A DNA stretch of 64,000 bases from Candidatus Shapirobacteria bacterium (GTDB lineage Bacteria > Patescibacteriota > Microgenomatia > UBA12405): the NCBI GenBank assembly GCA_030698565.1, contig JAUYJS010000003.1:76187-140186 (forward strand). Direction: 5' to 3'. The notes under the pieces were generated by a model that saw only the letters and a program-made list of their open reading frames with translations, was not told the origin of the DNA and did not search any database. Position numbers and translations under genes: made by a program. This document shows, piece after piece, positions 23,279 through 60,150 of this stretch. The first letter of the stretch is position 1; the number at the start of each line of letters is the position of its first letter.

Positions 23279-23354
23279 TGGTGGACCTAAGGGGACTCGA
23301 ACCCCTGACCTTCCCCATGCCATGGGGACGCGCTACCAACTACGCTATAGGCCC
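23279..23354 (-). tRNA. tRNA-Ala (anticodon GGC), copy 1, CCA encoded
   Basis: Reverse complement gggccta...tccccATGGCATgggga...ggggttcgagtcccc-taggtcc-a-cca. G3:U70 Ala identity pair present. Confidence 0.85.
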
Positions 23355-24004: not shown

Positions 24005-24077
24005 TGGACCTAAGGGGACTCGAACCCCTGACCTTCCCCATGCCATGGGGACGCGCTACCAACTACGCTATAGGCCC
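24005..24077 (-). tRNA. tRNA-Ala (anticodon GGC), copy 2, identical to copy 1 over 73 nt but without encoded CCA
   Basis: Same 73-nt sequence as 23282-23354. The 3' flank reads ACAAAT instead of ACCAAAT. Confidence 0.8.
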
Positions 24078-25863: not shown

Positions 25864-25902
25864 ATCCTATAACTTGACATTATTATATAAATTTTATATA
25901 AT
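25864..25902 (+). promoter_or_regulatory. Promoter repeat copy 1: ATCCTATAAC-TTGACA-17 nt-TATAAT
   Basis: TTGACA at 25874-25879 and TATAAT at 25897-25902 with exact 17-nt spacing. The upstream ATCCTATAAC block is shared with copies at 26725, 26916 and 26985. Confidence 0.6.
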
Positions 25903-25957: not shown

Positions 25958-26036
25958 GTTCTTTAACAAACCGTAAACTTTGAAATTTCGAATCCGATTG
26001 TGAGTACACACTGTGTATTTAGAACCGGATTCGAAA
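25958..26036 (+). promoter_or_regulatory. 5'-UTR element: conserved motif TCTTTAACAAACCGTAAACTTT followed by a 12-bp perfect inverted repeat with a nested palindrome
   Basis: The motif is also present at 27096-27119. Arms atttcgaatccg (25986-25997) and cggattcgaaat (26025-26036) enclose tacaca-c-tgtgta. Confidence 0.45.
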
Positions 26037-26058
26037 TATGTTTTTGGAGGTTGAGACA

Positions 26059-26637
26059 ATGCTTAAGAAGATGATTTCCGTTTTCTTGATTCTGGGTTTA
26101 GTGTTTATCACCCGGTCTGTCCCAGTTTTTGCTGGCGGTACTTCCGATAACCCCGGAAGCTACTACGTCGCACCGGTCAGTATTATCCTAACTTCAAATG
26201 GAAATGCCAGCCTCAATGCCAACGTCTTACTACCATACGGCACAATGGCTGAGATGGGCGACGAAGTCTACTATTCCACTATCAACTCTTTTGACATCCC
26301 AATGAAGGCCCTAGATTCACTAAAAGTCTTTGATCCTGTCAGTATGGTCGTTACCAGGGTTACTTACTCCGGCGTCAATACTCCAGCATCATTCGTCTCG
26401 ATTCCCATTGTAAAGATCAACGTCCCATACAACTACCAGGCTTGGAAGATGACCTACATCGACATCAAGTGCAATGAGGATTACACCTCCTGCACCGGCG
26501 GCTGGTCAATCACCCGATACCTGGGCGGCAATATCTACAAATTGACCCTTGAAAGGGGTAGCACCTTAATCATCCAACCAACCGACGATATCCTCAACAA
26601 TCGGCTTTTGCCACCCATCTTAGCCCAAATAGGCTAA
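26059..26637 (+). CDS. Secreted hypothetical protein, GC-rich relative to the genome
   Basis: SD ggagg 8 nt upstream. Signal peptide MLKKMISVFLILGLVFITRSVPVFAGG. Composition is clearly above the local background. The start at 26059 is preferred over the track's 26038. Confidence 0.55.
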   Translation: MLKKMISVFLILGLVFITRSVPVFAGGTSDNPGSYYVAPVSIILTSNGNASLNANVLLPYGTMAEMGDEVYYSTINSFDIPMKALDSLKVFDPVSMVVTRVTYSGVNTPASFVSIPIVKINVPYNYQAWKMTYIDIKCNEDYTSCTGGWSITRYLGGNIYKLTLERGSTLIIQPTDDILNNRLLPPILAQIG

Positions 26638-26724: not shown

Positions 26725-26763
26725 ATCCTATAACTTGACATTATTAAACATTACTGTTACACT
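26725..26763 (+). promoter_or_regulatory. Promoter repeat copy 2 (ATCCTATAAC-TTGACA-17-TACACT)
   Basis: TTGACA 26735-26740. A -10-like TACACT at 26758-26763. Confidence 0.45.
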
Positions 26764-26905
26764 ACTTCAGTTCATTAAAAATTAGACAAAAATAAATACC
26801 AAAGGAGAGATGTTGGGGTGGGCTCCTCTAAAGATCTTCACTCCATTTCTCCTTTGCTATTTATATAATATTTTAAAAAAACCTCCATTAATTTGGAGGT
26901 TTTTT
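26764..26905 (+). ncRNA. Candidate small RNA (or 22-aa micro-ORF) between promoter repeat 2 and a strong bidirectional terminator
   Basis: About 140 nt with no ORF of 60 aa or more. A 13-bp near-perfect inverted repeat caaaggagaGatg...catttctcctttg. Terminator aaaaaaacctcca-ttaatt-tggaggtttttttt at 26872-26905. Confidence 0.35.
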
Positions 26906-26915
26906 TTGGTCCCCT

Positions 26916-27023
26916 ATCCTATAACGACTGACATTATTAATTAAATTCCTTCATCCAGCTCTGGTTTGCAAATTGTGTTTTGTTATCCTATAACTTGATT
27001 TTTTTACCATTTAATGCTATAAA
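26916..27023 (+). promoter_or_regulatory. Promoter repeat copies 3 (degenerate: ATCCTATAACGACTGACATTATTA) and 4 (ATCCTATAAC-TTGATT-17-TATAAA)
   Basis: Copy 4: TTGATT 26995-27000 and TATAAA 27018-27023 with 17-nt spacing. Confidence 0.45.
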
Positions 27024-27277
27024 CATCCATAGCAAGAAATTGCTTGTAAGTTGATTATATTTTAGACAATGCGTCTAATTCTCATAATCAATTTAGCTCT
27101 TTAACAAACCGTAAGACTTTTGTTGAAAAAAGAATATCTCATTACATTTAGGCTTGTGTAGAAGAATGATGATGAAATTTTGGAAGAAAAAAATTGGGTA
27201 ATAAAACCCATTCACATAGGCCCCGGCCCCGGCAGAGATCCAATTTTTTTTGCGTAATACGCAAAGGAGGAATTTTC

Positions 27278-28189
27278 ATGTCCGCACCCGGAACAACACC
27301 GACCCGTACCCGCAGGTCTCTTAATTGGCTCACGCGTCACTGGTTCCCAATCCTGATGGTGATGATCGCGCTGGCGGTGCTAGTAGTTTGGCTATTCGTA
27401 TGGCATCCATGGAAGACCACCACTGCCCCGGCACCCGTTGTACCTGCAACTTCCACTACTGCTGTCACTGTTCCAGGAATCGATACTCTGACTGAAGCGG
27501 TCAAGGGAAACACGAAGGCGACGTCCGAAAACACCACTGCGACAATCGACAACACGGCAGCTACAAAGGAGAACACAACGACCTTGAAAAGCAACACCGA
27601 CAAGGTGATTGCTACTGCACCAGCTGCACCTGCACCGGCTCCTGCGCCTACCGTCGTTTACGTCCCGATCCATGTGTCTGCTCCTACTCCTGTTGTTACC
27701 GAATGGGTTACTGAACATGAACTGGACCTGACCCCAAACAAGGGCCATAGAATGTATCAGGTTAGATACAATAATGGAAGAAGAACCGAAGAAATTCGGT
27801 ACTTCACTCCCGAGAGATATATTACTCTCGAGGGAGACATTACTACTCCAACTTCTACCGTCGTCTATGTCCCGACCCCTGCACCTGCTCCGGCTCCCAC
27901 TGGCAACGACTGCCAAGAGTGGACAAAGAACACTAATGGCTCAATGAGTTGGGTCGGCCCAACTGACGGTACGATGAGTATTTGTCAGACGGGGACATGG
28001 CTCGACTGGATTCGCGCCGGGCACACGGCTGTTTTCAGCGTCTCCGTTCCGGGGACACTGGAAATCACCACCGGTTCTTATTCCACCCAAGTCACCGGGA
28101 ATGTGATCACCTACACGGTGATCAACAGTTCCGGCCCTAGTGGCGGCTTCCGCTGGACCCCTCAACAAGGGTACGGCTGGAGACGCTAA
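27278..28189 (+). CDS. GC-rich membrane-anchored Thr/Pro/Ala-rich protein with an internal repeat (hypothetical)
   Basis: SD aaaggagg 7 nt upstream. N-terminal TM anchor (WFPILMVMIALAVLVVWLFVW). The internal repeat APAPAPAPTVVYVP appears twice. Composition is far more GC-rich than the surrounding low-GC genome. The start at 27278 is preferred over the track's 27194. Confidence 0.55.
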   Translation: MSAPGTTPTRTRRSLNWLTRHWFPILMVMIALAVLVVWLFVWHPWKTTTAPAPVVPATSTTAVTVPGIDTLTEAVKGNTKATSENTTATIDNTAATKENTTTLKSNTDKVIATAPAAPAPAPAPTVVYVPIHVSAPTPVVTEWVTEHELDLTPNKGHRMYQVRYNNGRRTEEIRYFTPERYITLEGDITTPTSTVVYVPTPAPAPAPTGNDCQEWTKNTNGSMSWVGPTDGTMSICQTGTWLDWIRAGHTAVFSVSVPGTLEITTGSYSTQVTGNVITYTVINSSGPSGGFRWTPQQGYGWRR

Positions 28190-28277: not shown

Positions 28278-28328
28278 TTCCATTATCGATGTGTGTCGAT
28301 ACTGATGAGTCCAAAAGGACGAATGGAA
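28278..28328 (+). ncRNA. Hammerhead-ribozyme-like motif (type III topology) with a U15.1:A16.1 variant helix III. Ends 6 nt before the GT2 start codon.
   Basis: uucca-U-UAUCGA-ugugug-UCGAUA-CUGAUGA-GUCC-aaaa-GGAC-GAA-uggaa. Helix I, the CUGAUGA core, the GUCC/GGAC helix II and GAA are the same as the canonical copy at 59460-59520. Helix III is fully compensated but carries the noncanonical 15.1/16.1 pair. Confidence 0.45.
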
Positions 28329-28333
28329 ATTTT

Positions 28334-29254
28334 ATGAAAAAAAATAAACAATCTTTAATATCCGTAATTATGCCGGTCTTTAACGCCGACAAATATTTAA
28401 AAGATGCTATAGACAGCATTTTAAATCAAACCTACTCTAATTTTGAATTTATTATTATTGACGATTCTTCAACTGATAATTCTTGGTCCATCATCAAAAA
28501 CTACCAAAAAATAGACAAACGAATTGTTGCCCGAAAAAATAGAAAAAATTCAGGTGTAGCTACAACTTTAAATAAAGCCTTAAAACTTTGCCACGGTGAA
28601 TATGTTGCTCGAATGGACGCCGATGATATTTCTTTGCCAAAACGTTTCCAAATTCAGCTGCACTACTTAAAAAAACACCCCGAAATTGTCGGTGTTGGCA
28701 CCCAAGTAAATATTATTAATAATTCCAACAAAATTACCGGTAAACGCTATTTTCCTACCACCACCAAAGATTGTTACCAATTTTTAATGATCACATCTCC
28801 TATTCAACATCCCACACTAATGGTCCGCACTCAAACCATAAAAAAATATCAATATTCAGCCAACTACAAAACAGCCGAAGATTGGGATCTTTACTTTAAA
28901 TTAGTTCAAAATAATCAATTAAATAATATCAATAAAACTCTTTATAATTATCGACAAAACTTTGGTAGCAACGGCTACAAAAACATCAAAAAAGCATTTA
29001 TTTTAATATTCAAAATTAGATTAAATGCCATTTTAAAACTAAACTATCATCCTTCAATAAAAGGACTTATTATTACTTTTCTCCAAGCCATTCTGGTTTT
29101 TTCCCTACCAGAAAAATTGGTTTTTAATCTATTCACTCTCTGGCGAGTCAGACAACTTTATTTTTTCGAAAATATTCAACTCCCACAATTATTACCAAAC
29201 AATTTAAAAGCCAACCAGCCCAAACTATTTGATTTGGCCAATAATCAGCCTTAA
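28334..29254 (+). CDS. Family 2 glycosyltransferase
   Basis: ISVIMPVFNADKYL...NFEFIIIDDSSTDNS (GT2 DxD region). The start at 28334 (MKKNKQ) is preferred. Its 3' end overlaps the convergent gene by about 107 nt. Confidence 0.7.
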   Translation: MKKNKQSLISVIMPVFNADKYLKDAIDSILNQTYSNFEFIIIDDSSTDNSWSIIKNYQKIDKRIVARKNRKNSGVATTLNKALKLCHGEYVARMDADDISLPKRFQIQLHYLKKHPEIVGVGTQVNIINNSNKITGKRYFPTTTKDCYQFLMITSPIQHPTLMVRTQTIKKYQYSANYKTAEDWDLYFKLVQNNQLNNINKTLYNYRQNFGSNGYKNIKKAFILIFKIRLNAILKLNYHPSIKGLIITFLQAILVFSLPEKLVFNLFTLWRVRQLYFFENIQLPQLLPNNLKANQPKLFDLANNQP

Positions 29255-58315: not shown

Positions 58316-58352
58316 ATCCTATATTTCAATTTATATGTAAATTTGGTATAAT
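58316..58352 (+). promoter_or_regulatory. Promoter with an extended -10 (TGgTATAAT) preceded by an ATCCTATA block, then a 5'-UTR 15-bp hairpin
   Basis: atcctatatttcaatttatatgtaaatttggtataat. Further downstream, cggtaacacgtttct...agaaatgtgttaccg (14/15 complementary). Confidence 0.45.
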
Positions 58353-58509
58353 CCGGGCGTTTACTAGAATTCAAAAAATAAAGCATTTATTGAATTTTTT
58401 AAGCACCTTAAAATTTGCAGAACACTATTTTTCGGTAACACGTTTCTGAATAGACTAAAGTATTTAGAAATGTGTTACCGAATCTAATTTTGAAAGGAAT
58501 GAATCTTCA

Positions 58510-59400
58510 ATGGAAATCAGAACGATACCTGTTTCAAGTTCAAAAATGCACCCAATGACGCGACCCGGTTACTTAGCCAATATGTTTCAACAAACCGGTG
58601 GATTCCAGTCAATGCTCCTTGCCAATTATCTGGCTCAAGAACACCAACGAGGCGAAGGTATCAAGAGTCACACTGAAGTCTTATCTGTGATCATCGACGG
58701 TCAACGGTTGGAAATGACCTTGGATCAAATCAATGATCATTTGGCTAAGCTATCAGGGAATATTCCTCAACTTGAAGCCGTCGTTTCCTGGGGAAGAGAT
58801 CCATACCAAAAAGTTCTCTCTTGGATACATGGCCTACCCAACTCCTCACACGAACGTCCGATGATTCAGGAAGGACCACACTTGGTCCTGGCTCTTTATA
58901 GCTATGCCAAGGATGGCCTTCGTCTTTACCGGACTCTTCAGAGAAGGCCGTTCGACGTTAAAATTGATACGGTCCGGGGGTTCACTGGCACAACAGAAGA
59001 AATGTATGGCAACACCAACCCTGACGTCATTCTCCAACACATTGTCAAAACCATCGGCGACGAAGCTGGTCAAAAGTGTCTTGACATCCGGGACATCGTT
59101 TTCCTCGGCGCCCATCATGTCAACTCTTCTTTTGTCCAATCAAGAACCGCTCTCTTCGGGATCGAAATCGACCGAGACAGATTCCTGGAAAGCAATCGTG
59201 TGTTTACATCTGAAGAAGCAAAAAGGATGGAGCGACAGTACCAACAGCAGGGTTTACTCAGTCAAATTATTGAACTGACTATCCCTCAGTTTTTGGCTTA
59301 CGGATGTCACCCCGACGTCTGTCGTGACTTCACGGCCGATGCCCCCCATCAAGCAATATTGTCTGCTCATCTCCTCAACCTCCTTAAACCTTCCAACTAA
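58510..59400 (+). CDS. GC-rich hypothetical cytoplasmic protein (296 aa)
   Basis: The ORF is much more GC-rich than its neighbours. It has its own promoter and is followed by a strong terminator. Confidence 0.5.
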   Translation: MEIRTIPVSSSKMHPMTRPGYLANMFQQTGGFQSMLLANYLAQEHQRGEGIKSHTEVLSVIIDGQRLEMTLDQINDHLAKLSGNIPQLEAVVSWGRDPYQKVLSWIHGLPNSSHERPMIQEGPHLVLALYSYAKDGLRLYRTLQRRPFDVKIDTVRGFTGTTEEMYGNTNPDVILQHIVKTIGDEAGQKCLDIRDIVFLGAHHVNSSFVQSRTALFGIEIDRDRFLESNRVFTSEEAKRMERQYQQQGLLSQIIELTIPQFLAYGCHPDVCRDFTADAPHQAILSAHLLNLLKPSN

Positions 59401-59428
59401 GAGAATCGGGTTCTCCCGATTCTCTCCC
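59401..59428 (+). terminator. Intrinsic terminator-like hairpin (11-bp perfect stem)
   Basis: agagaatcggg-ttct-cccgattctct. Confidence 0.6.
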
Positions 59429-59459
59429 CCTCCGGGGGTCAATGTAATTAGTGTTCTGT

Positions 59460-59520
59460 AAATATGGTCTATCGAAAAATCGATACTGATGAGTCCCGTA
59501 GGACGAAACCAAATATTTTT
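59460..59520 (+). ncRNA. Canonical type III hammerhead ribozyme motif
   Basis: aauaugg-U-C | UAUCGA-aaaa-UCGAUA CUGAUGA GUCC-cgua-GGAC GAA A-ccaaauauu. Every core position is canonical: CUGAUGA, G10.1:C11.1, G12A13A14, A15.1:U16.1, and a GUC cleavage triplet. Confidence 0.6.
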
Positions 59521-59666
59521 AATTCACTCTATATACTTCGTTATGAGTTCCAATATTTACAAAATGAGCTATGCCGTTTTCAACAAAATAAATCATTCTA
59601 ATACTATCATTAATTGAAATACTCCAATAACCATTCAAGTAACCTTTCAATTTAAAGTAAAATATC

Positions 59667-59933
59667 TCACTTATTCAGTTTATCAAGAATTTTATCAAAA
59701 TATTCATCAGTATTCCTAACTTTAATCCATTTTACTTTTCCACTTTTTGCATCTCGAATATTTTTTAATGTTTCTTCAGAAAATTCTAAATCATCGCTTT
59801 CCTCCAAATCCTTTATCATCAAATATCTGGTATATGCCGCCAAACTTATACCATATTTAACGGCTTTCCTTTTTATTTTGCTCTTAATTGAATCTGATAA
59901 ATTTATTTTTATTTGACTTTGTTTAGTTTCCAT
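59667..59933 (-). CDS. Small RHH/antitoxin-like DNA-binding protein (orphan)
   Basis: KINLSDSIKSKIKRKAVKYGISLAAYTRYLM resembles ribbon-helix-helix antitoxins. No adjacent toxin ORF was found. Confidence 0.35.
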   Translation of the reverse strand: METKQSQIKINLSDSIKSKIKRKAVKYGISLAAYTRYLMIKDLEESDDLEFSEETLKNIRDAKSGKVKWIKVRNTDEYFDKILDKLNK

Positions 59934-60015: not shown

Positions 60016-60150
60016 TGCTATAATAACCCCATCTTAACCGAAGACAGTAGGCTTGGCTAATCACCATTGAAAAGTCCTACCGAGGCAAAAGCAATTTGTT
60101 TTTATTTTGCGCCTCGATCTTCGAGGTTTTTTTTATTTTAATAACAAATT
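60016..60150 (+). promoter_or_regulatory. rplJ promoter (TGcTATAAT) and L10-leader-like structured 5' UTR ending in an attenuator terminator
   Basis: Extended -10 at 60016-60024. Hairpins gtagg...cctac. gcgcctcgatcttcgagg followed by a T-run at 60109-60134, just before the rplJ ATG. Confidence 0.5.

Follow-up and report, generated by a model that had tools for sequence, protein, structure and literature searches.

A GC-rich gene in a Candidatus Shapirobacteria genome is followed by a short stretch that reads like a hammerhead ribozyme, which raises the question whether this is a genuine self-cleaving RNA and, if so, what it does behind that gene. The window, the whole stretch of 64,000 nucleotides analysed here (contig JAUYJS010000003.1), carries the motif on its plus strand. 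The first-pass annotation had placed it at 59460-59520; we located it at 59460-59518, with every core nucleotide as described.

The hammerhead motifs of the window

The elements read at 59.5 kb are these:

59460-59518, plus strand: type III hammerhead ribozyme, whole motif (sequence, Rfam RF00008, subfamily model R1, MFE fold)
59460-59468, plus strand: helix III 5' strand, AAAUAUGGU (direct read)
59469, plus strand: C17, the cleavage position (direct read)
59470-59485, plus strand: helix I, 6 bp, made of UAUCGA (59470-59475), loop AAAA (59476-59479) and UCGAUA (59480-59485)
59486-59492, plus strand: catalytic core CUGAUGA (direct read)
59493-59504, plus strand: helix II, 4 bp, made of GUCC (59493-59496), loop CGUA (59497-59500) and GGAC (59501-59504)
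59505-59507, plus strand: GAA of the core (direct read)
59508-59518, plus strand: A15.1 (59508) and, from the same position on, the helix III 3' strand, ACCA-AA-AUAUU (direct read)

The core (C3 U4 G5 A6 N7 G8 A9 ... G12 A13 A14) is intact, and direct reading of the sequence confirmed three further features that had been proposed, namely the G10.1:C11.1 pair, the A15.1:U16.1 pair (U59468:A59508) and a GUC triplet with C59469 at position 17. Because all of these are present, self-cleavage is predicted between C59469 and U59470. Helix III consists of 4 bp, a 2-nt bulge (A59512, A59513) and five A-U pairs. The MFE structure of the isolated 59-nt RNA is the three-way junction, with all three helices formed; in the MFE fold with 126-nt context helix II is disrupted by a weak alternative pairing.

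A default Rfam scan of the window at gathering thresholds reported no hammerhead. Run permissively over 221 nt, the Rfam check that had been suggested gave a match of the 59.5-kb copy to Hammerhead_3 (RF00008, clan CL00010) with E=5.9e-8, or about 2e-5 by our own scaling to the 64-kb window, so that a hammerhead hit was obtained, but at 41.1 bits, 7 bits short of the curated gathering score of 48.5 bits, which is why the default scan omits it. Since the E-value is still significant, the sub-threshold score is a shortfall of calibration and not a failed structural feature; the bit-score cut-off is the only feature of RF00008 membership that this copy fails, and a relative (L129) passes it. The subfamily model R1, described with its relatives below, assigned the copy 64.5 bits (E 1.6e-19), and two instances of the core pattern CTGATGAGTCC-N4-GGACGAA were counted in the window, with 0.01 expected.

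The second occurrence lies 31 kb away, between the following genes:

27194-28189, plus strand: 331-aa ORF with the highest GC in the window, with a TM helix, P/A/T-rich (GC 0.54, z=4.1)
28278-28328, plus strand: another hammerhead of the subfamily, carrying U15.1:A16.1 and a CAU triplet (sequence, R1 76.9 bits)
28334-29254, plus strand: GT2 glycosyltransferase gene directly 3' of the second hammerhead (Pfam PF00535, E 3.5e-36)

The first-pass annotation had called this site a near-twin behind another GC-rich ORF. The position behind such an ORF was upheld, as was the kinship: the two copies have helix I, the core and helix II in common (a 28-nt core). They are not catalytic twins, in that the 28.3-kb copy has a U after GAA, paired with A at 16.1. 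Owing to this swap the triplet is CAU rather than NUH, and cleavage is predicted after U28283. In Rfam the copy reached 17.8 bits, as a partial match only. Between it and the start of GT2 (28334) lie 5 nt. A scan of the window with the subfamily model returned these two copies only, the next-best match having 13 bits.

The swapped pair also occurs in L181 and L146, which like the 28.3-kb copy have U:A in place of A15.1:U16.1. L181, whose GT2 is 95% identical to that of the window, has retained the variant, and the swap in L146 arose independently. A natural U15.1-A16.1 variant with weak cleavage is known among the bacterial and prophage hammerheads as well (PMC3088659). Because the swap is kept in L181, is independent in L146 and goes with weak cleavage in a natural hammerhead, the 28.3-kb copy is probably a slow cutter.

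Relatives of the ribozyme in Patescibacteria

In species-representative genomes an exact-pattern scan matched at nine loci, of which seven carry a Patescibacteria label (Collier-, Shapiro- and Woesebacteria, Paceibacterota), and a pattern with helix II and helix III left free gave 46 metagenome loci, the search patterns having fixed the sequence of either helix I or helix II. After chance matches and duplicates were discarded, 34 distinct copies remained. A covariance model built from 12 copies recovered the known set and five more with divergent helices, and 39 related copies, nearly all from genomes and metagenomes of Patescibacteria/Microgenomates, were aligned.

The alignment showed extensive covariation. 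Standard pairs made up 95.0% of its cells versus 78.7 +/- 1.0 in shuffles, and double-sided, compensatory changes were found in 14 of 16 pairs versus 6.1 +/- 0.9 in shuffles, counts that are to be read with the metagenome copies not being independent events and with pair counts flattered in alignments A3 and A4, which were fitted to the model. Either value was reached by 0 of 500 shuffles, and the signal collapsed when the alignment register was slid. Covariation was found in all three helices; the two pairs without variation are G10.1:C11.1 (39/39) and one G:C pair of helix I. Helix III differs in nearly every copy (GCAU/AUGC, AGUUU/AAACU, CCAGU/ACUGG and others), and helix II is found as GUCC/GGAC, GUUC/GAAC, GUCU/AGAC and GCUC/GAGC; loop II can contain inserted hairpins. 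Compensatory changes in helix I are seen in L171 (UUCCGA/UCGGAA) and in L182 (AUUUGA/UCAAAU). The catalytic core is identical in all copies displayed, the 15.1:16.1 pair is A:U in 36 of the 39, and G is absent from position 17, where the 34 copies parsed have U, C or A. Three relatives scored 49.2 (L129, above the 48.5 cut-off), 47.2 (L128) and 40.3 bits (L126) against Rfam Hammerhead_3.

On this comparison of sequences, the motif belongs to a genuine type III hammerhead family of which the window copy is a member, because compensatory changes affect 14 of 16 pairs, G is absent at position 17 and one relative passes Rfam. Selection on the subfamily is shown to maintain both the ribozyme fold and the rule at the cleavage site. 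As far as sampled, it is confined to Patescibacteria, mostly Microgenomates (Shapiro-, Woese- and Collierbacteria). It recurs there, and a hammerhead in this kind of reduced genome is not, as had been supposed, unusual. It shares with Hammerhead_3 the catalytic core, an open helix III, capped helices I and II, H at position 17 and the geometry of 6 bp in helix I and 4 bp in helix II. It differs in a nearly fixed helix I (UAUCGA/UCGAUA) and a loop II of AAAA, and in being chromosomal in Patescibacteria and not located in viroids, satellites or plant or metazoan repeats. It is a lineage-specific hammerhead subfamily, and neither a new ribozyme class nor a new mobile element. Our literature search returned no paper linking hammerheads or self-cleaving ribozymes to Patescibacteria, CPR or Microgenomates, which is absence of evidence only; the locus would thus represent an element of known type whose setting we found nowhere described.

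Genes and promoters around the ribozymes

The remaining features on which the interpretation draws are listed here:

26038-26637: third most GC-rich ORF (z=2.5)
58316-58352, plus strand: putative promoter, with a degenerate ATCCTATA box, -35 TTCAAT, 16-nt spacer and extended -10 TGGTATAAT
58510-59400, plus strand: GC-rich ORF of 296 aa with the ribozyme in its 3' UTR (GC 0.47, z=2.6; GC3 0.48, z=2.5)
59400-59425 and 59426-59438, plus strand: two stable hairpins directly past the stop codon, no U tract (fold)
59519-59933, minus strand: decayed toxin-antitoxin module, convergent on the ribozyme (NCBIfam/PHROG)
59519-59650, minus strand: RelE-family toxin, C-terminal half only (RelE model positions 49-88 of 88)
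59667-59933, minus strand: relB-like gene (NCBIfam/PHROG)

The association of the hammerhead with a GC-rich upstream ORF, first remarked at 59.5 kb, is real. ORF calling on the window gave 62 ORFs of 120 aa or longer, among which ORF 58510-59400 ranks second in GC, and ribozymes lie behind two of the three most GC-rich ORFs, for which random placement has a probability of about 0.002 by our own estimate. The GC3 of these three ORFs is shifted equally to their GC. Across the subfamily, the upstream ORF exceeds its locus in GC in 29 of 32 copies (median +0.07), versus only 10 of 30 for the downstream ORF.

Searches of Pfam, NCBIfam and PHROG assigned no family to the three GC-rich ORFs, the 331-aa ORF having one weak PHROG match (E 0.0045). 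The 296-aa ORF at first looked like an orphan, with only a self-match in a word-indexed protein search; this was overturned by an exhaustive HMMER search, which returned 19 remote homologues at E<=1e-3, and on that evidence the protein would belong to a small family without an assigned function. Homologues of it occur without a ribozyme. One of them (L185, 38% identity) occupies the corresponding position, directly upstream of an L10 leader, rplJ and rplL, with a ManC-like gene beyond as in the window, at a locus that has neither hammerhead nor TA module. In another case 6 nt separate the homologue from the gene that follows.

The GC-rich genes have a promoter box in common, ATCCTATAA(N)YTTGA(CA)-N17-TATAAT. 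It is present three times in the 25.8-27 kb island of the window, three times in L185, and, in L122, L126, L128, L129, L132, L158 and L182, at a distance of about 1.2-1.4 kb 5' of the ribozyme; its degenerate form at 58316-58352 is the putative promoter that we infer for the 296-aa ORF. At GT2 orthologue loci that lack the hammerhead, the upstream ORFs are still GC-rich (0.58-0.64 versus 0.42-0.43). A search for a ribozyme or other RNA at two such loci (L183 and L184) and behind ORF 26038-26637 yielded nothing credible. Because of the synteny and homology across genera described below, the remote homologues, the same placement in L185, the GC-richness at loci without a ribozyme and the common promoter box, the GC-rich genes look like a resident, co-regulated class and not a mobile cassette. 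As a separate observation, the leader palindromes of both islands have GTATTTAGAA in common, a motif that is not conserved in relatives.

All copies of the subfamily lie between same-strand genes or behind one. The distance from the stop codon of the upstream ORF to the cleavage site has a median of 91.5 nt and is 54-124 nt in most copies, and in each of the 29 copies whose upstream ORF could be measured this spacer contains a stable hairpin (-18 to -81 kcal/mol), without a U tract in those inspected. Three contexts recur. In the first, found at at least 11 loci including the 28.3-kb site of the window, a GalU-like gene, a gene for a GC-rich membrane-anchored protein, the hammerhead, GT2 and a gene for a large membrane protein follow one another. 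This synteny is conserved across several genera; L122, L125, L126 and L128 encode homologous upstream proteins (E 1e-70 to 1e-10), and the 331-aa ORF is their positional counterpart. In the second, a two-gene block lies between two hammerheads and is followed by the adenylosuccinate synthetase gene purA (L124, L171). In the third, the hammerhead precedes rplU, a T4SS pilin gene or a HAD hydrolase gene. Same-strand pairs of hammerheads bound blocks of 2-2.5 kb in L124, L171 and L174. In L182 a hammerhead stands behind each of two consecutive GC-rich ORFs, with the promoter box of the next gene immediately 3' of the first.

At 28.3 kb, the spacer between ORF 27194-28189 and GT2 contains a weak terminator-like hairpin and no strong terminator, and a promoter scan found no sigma-70-like promoter between that ORF and the GT2 start. 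At 59.5 kb, the annotation had spoken of a terminator after ORF 58510-59400. The term is inaccurate because the two hairpins have no U tract, and terminator prediction called none between the stop codon and the ribozyme; we propose that they may instead be 3'-protective structures of the cleaved mRNA. The intergenic region is convergent, as had been noted, with the relB-like gene on the minus strand, and no same-strand gene follows within 400 nt. In L185 the L10 leader and rplJ follow straight after the homologous ORF, and this arrangement suggests that the 59.5-kb ribozyme once lay between its ORF and rplJ, and that the TA module was probably inserted later and then decayed.

Proposed role and competing explanations

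We consider it probable that the motif is a genuine Patescibacteria hammerhead which makes mRNA 3' ends and separates neighbouring cistrons, rplJ having once been the partner at 59.5 kb. Transcription from the promoter near 58316-58352 would run through the GC-rich ORF, the two hairpins and the ribozyme, which would be transcribed as part of the 3' UTR because no intrinsic terminator lies between stop codon and ribozyme. Judging by the intact core and the covariation of the family, the RNA would then fold into the three-helix junction and cleave itself after C59469. The upstream mRNA would be left with a 2',3'-cyclic phosphate 31 nt past the two hairpins, and the read-through RNA would be detached; in most subfamily members the latter would be the next cistron, starting with a 5'-OH and the compact ribozyme body. 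For the subfamily at large, the making of mRNA 3' ends together with the separation of neighbouring cistrons is the most likely role that the sequences suggest, because the module of ORF, hairpin and hammerhead usually precedes the next cistron (GT2, purA, rplU, T4SS pilin). By analogy, it matches the processing role proposed for bacterial hammerheads, the cutting of polycistronic RNA into gene-length mRNAs (PMC3088659; PMC6155905); such hammerheads cleave polycistronic transcripts of about 2 kb in vitro (PMC3088659).

The published cases of bacterial hammerheads are mostly tied to prophages with changing neighbours (PMC3088659, PMC6155905). For the question what hammerheads do in bacteria, the present subfamily offers a cleaner handle: its copies number in the dozens within a single lineage and stand in fixed syntenic places between GC-rich and housekeeping genes. 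Natural comparators exist in orthologous loci with and without the ribozyme and in the maintained U15.1:A16.1 variant, and owing to these and to the fixed positions the idea of a 3'-end maker and cistron separator is directly testable.

Going further, the elements could constitute an expression module conserved on Microgenomates chromosomes, made up of a promoter with the ATCCTATAA box and, after a long leader, a lineage-specific GC-rich ORF, a hairpin without U tract and a hammerhead, in which cleavage replaces intrinsic termination and insulates a housekeeping gene. We regard this extended version as doubtful. If true, it would give a bacterial hammerhead a physiological, non-phage role, the adjacent housekeeping gene would have a 5'-OH and a ribozyme-capped leader, and mRNA excised from the 2-2.5 kb blocks with two ribozymes (L124, L171, L174) could be circularised. 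The ORF of such a module is often a membrane or secreted protein, and the genes that would be insulated are GT2, purA, rplU and rplJ.

The 59.5-kb copy could also be a relic, descended from a functional intercistronic hammerhead but now decaying and without a role, its partner separated from it by the TA insertion. It is the least typical member of the subfamily. Both loops are conserved in the subfamily, loop I as UGYRUR and loop II as AAAA; with AAAA and CGUA in their place, this is the only one of the 39 copies in which both depart from the consensus. The loop I-loop II contact, on which fast cleavage at physiological Mg2+ depends (PMC6155905), may therefore be missing here. The copy also has a bulged helix III, and its subfamily score is the lowest among the insertion-free copies. 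It also abuts the truncated RelE remnant with no same-strand gene downstream, and homologues of its upstream ORF manage without a hammerhead. Against decay, the core, G10.1:C11.1, A15.1:U16.1 and C17 are intact and the three helices form, and loop contacts are not required for cleavage by minimal hammerheads in vitro (PMC6155905). Nor is the absence of a close downstream gene peculiar to this copy, being found also in L156, L174 and the first copy of L182, and a cutter could keep some use here, since RNA transcribed past the ribozyme would run antisense to the TA module. Because of the loops, the bulge and the alternative pairing in longer context, decay of this copy keeps some weight, but we judge it unlikely.

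A structured RNA that does not cleave, for instance one controlling the translation start of the downstream gene, is improbable. The downstream start lies within 30 nt of position 15.1 in 16 of 30 copies and overlaps helix III in some (L122, L125, L126, L132, L137), and several members have a likely Shine-Dalgarno sequence, AAGGA, in loop II/helix II with the start overlapping or just past helix III, a layout that would suit such control. Variants expected to cleave poorly are moreover maintained with their U15.1:A16.1 pairing kept (28.3 kb, L181, L146). However, the natural hammerhead with this pair does cleave (PMC3088659), the strict conservation of the catalytic nucleotides and the absence of G17 in 34 copies would go unexplained, and control of a downstream gene is inapplicable to the 59.5-kb copy, which has none.

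The first-pass annotation had further taken the GC-rich genes and their hammerheads for a foreign-looking, possibly mobile unit, that is, one acquired horizontally as a cassette, a retrozyme-like element or a circular-RNA element. This is now very improbable and largely refuted. What speaks for it is that the upstream ORFs exceed the mean of the window by 2.5-4 sd in both GC and GC3, that lineage-specific genes without a Pfam family predominate upstream versus housekeeping genes downstream, and that same-strand hammerhead pairs enclose 2-2.5 kb blocks. But the two islands of the window have no DNA, repeats or ends in common beyond the ribozyme core, only two copies occur in 64 kb, and no integrase, transposase or reverse transcriptase was noticed among the flanking ORFs, for which no dedicated search was made. 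Synteny and homologous upstream proteins extend across genera, the promoter box is conserved and of host type, GC-richness persists upstream in relatives without the ribozyme, and the family of the 296-aa ORF has members without it. Subfamily-specific patterns had 0 matches in the 2.9 million viral contigs of IMG/VR; the generic hammerhead core pattern is abundant there (>120 matches) and uninformative for the subfamily. The neighbourhoods of ThyX orthologues in relatives, examined for an empty site, are not syntenic.

Retrozymes and viroid-like and Obelisk circular RNAs carry type III hammerheads, and share with the present loci a hammerhead that adjoins or flanks a unit of about 1-2.5 kb. 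The paired ribozymes of L124, L171 and L174 add to the likeness, in that they would produce 5'-OH and 2',3'-cyclic phosphate ends, which could permit circularisation by a ligase. In contrast to those elements, the unit here is chromosomal DNA among ordinary bacterial genes in two independent assemblies, the window has one ribozyme per gene and no repeats or LTR-like ends, and the ORFs, which lie in conserved synteny, are served by sigma-70-type promoters of their own. The DNA of the window is present in a Logan assembly and in SRR13727534.

The bacterial hammerheads described by Perreault et al. 2011 are mostly of type II and lie near integrases and prophages with changing gene neighbours (PMC3088659; review PMC6155905). 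The present copies resemble them in being intergenic, on the strand of the flanking genes and sometimes paired around short blocks, and differ in being of type III, non-phage and syntenic beside housekeeping genes (GT2, purA, rplU, rplJ region). Their neighbours include thyX, rplJ/L, GT2, purA, rplU and a T4SS pilin gene, with no integrase or phage gene noticed among them; the only PHROG matches among them are the TA genes and the weak match of the 331-aa ORF.

Chance resemblance to the hammerhead consensus, to which the score under the Rfam gathering threshold might point, is refuted by the E-value of 5.9e-8, the two core patterns versus 0.01 expected and the covariation that 39 related copies show in each of the three helices. 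Sub-threshold Rfam matches in CPR genomes can thus be real.

A promoter box and leader hairpins of the GC-rich genes

The GC-rich, lineage-specific genes are preceded by a promoter box of conserved sequence, ATCCTATAA(N)YTTGA(CA)-N17-TATAAT, not only in the window but also in several further genomes of Microgenomates. Outside the window it was found at the related loci L122, L126, L128, L129, L132, L158, L182 and L185. The box looks like a dedicated promoter or a regulator site of this gene class. In addition, two of the window's GC-rich ORFs have a long 5' leader that contains a perfect or near-perfect palindromic hairpin of ~50 nt. The 3' arm of both palindromes carries the motif GUAUUUAGAA, which was not found in the related loci.

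Promoter boxes and leader hairpins in the window
25864-25902, plus strand: promoter box
26725-26763, plus strand: promoter box
26985-27006, plus strand: promoter box
58316-58352, plus strand: promoter box, degenerate copy
25985-26037, plus strand: palindromic hairpin
58433-58480, plus strand: palindromic hairpin

At 26725-26910 (plus strand), between two GC-rich ORFs, a strong promoter box stands about 150 nt ahead of a clean bidirectional terminator (AAAAAAACCUCC...GGAGGUUUUUUUU). The two elements enclose only a small ORF, and the interval may be a small RNA or micro-protein gene.

Paired hammerheads in related loci

Four related loci carry two hammerhead ribozymes on the same strand. The blocks bounded by these pairs span ~1-2.5 kb and hold one or two functionally uncharacterised genes. 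If both ribozymes of a pair cleave, the RNA would be released with 5'-OH and 2',3'-cyclic phosphate ends.

Same-strand hammerhead pairs
L124, 5019-5081 and 7581-7643
L171, 4652-4714 and 7026-7088
L174, 4420-4494 and 6350-6423
L182, 2329-2391 and 3400-3461

The contigs of L122 and L126, which also bear hammerheads, are assigned in their MAG records to Gammaproteobacteria and Candidatus Methanoperedens. Their gene content and synteny are typical of Microgenomates, and the labels are probably binning errors.

Surroundings of the 59.5-kb ribozyme and ribozyme-less loci

Beside the ribozyme lies a decayed toxin-antitoxin module, in which the RelE/StbE remnant covers only model positions 49-88 of 88. 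The relB/RelE module is not present at the syntenic locus L185, where a ribosomal protein L10 leader of the RF00557 type likewise lies 3' of the homologue of the 296-aa ORF.

59519-59933, minus strand: relB-like antitoxin gene, then the C-terminal half of a RelE/StbE toxin
60020-60142, plus strand: ribosomal protein L10 leader (RF00557, 50.4 bits), upstream of rplJ

Two loci with orthologues of the glycosyltransferase gene GT2 have long hairpins in the spacer (L183, 3330-3510; L184, 3310-3510), and neither spacer contains a hammerhead or any Rfam match. The ORFs upstream of these orthologues are very GC-rich (0.58-0.64). L183 and L184 are natural comparators that lack the ribozyme.

Elsewhere in the window, two tRNA genes of the same sequence (65.4 bits each) are spaced by 723 nt, suggesting a local duplication.

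23282-23354, minus strand: tRNA gene
24005-24077, minus strand: tRNA gene
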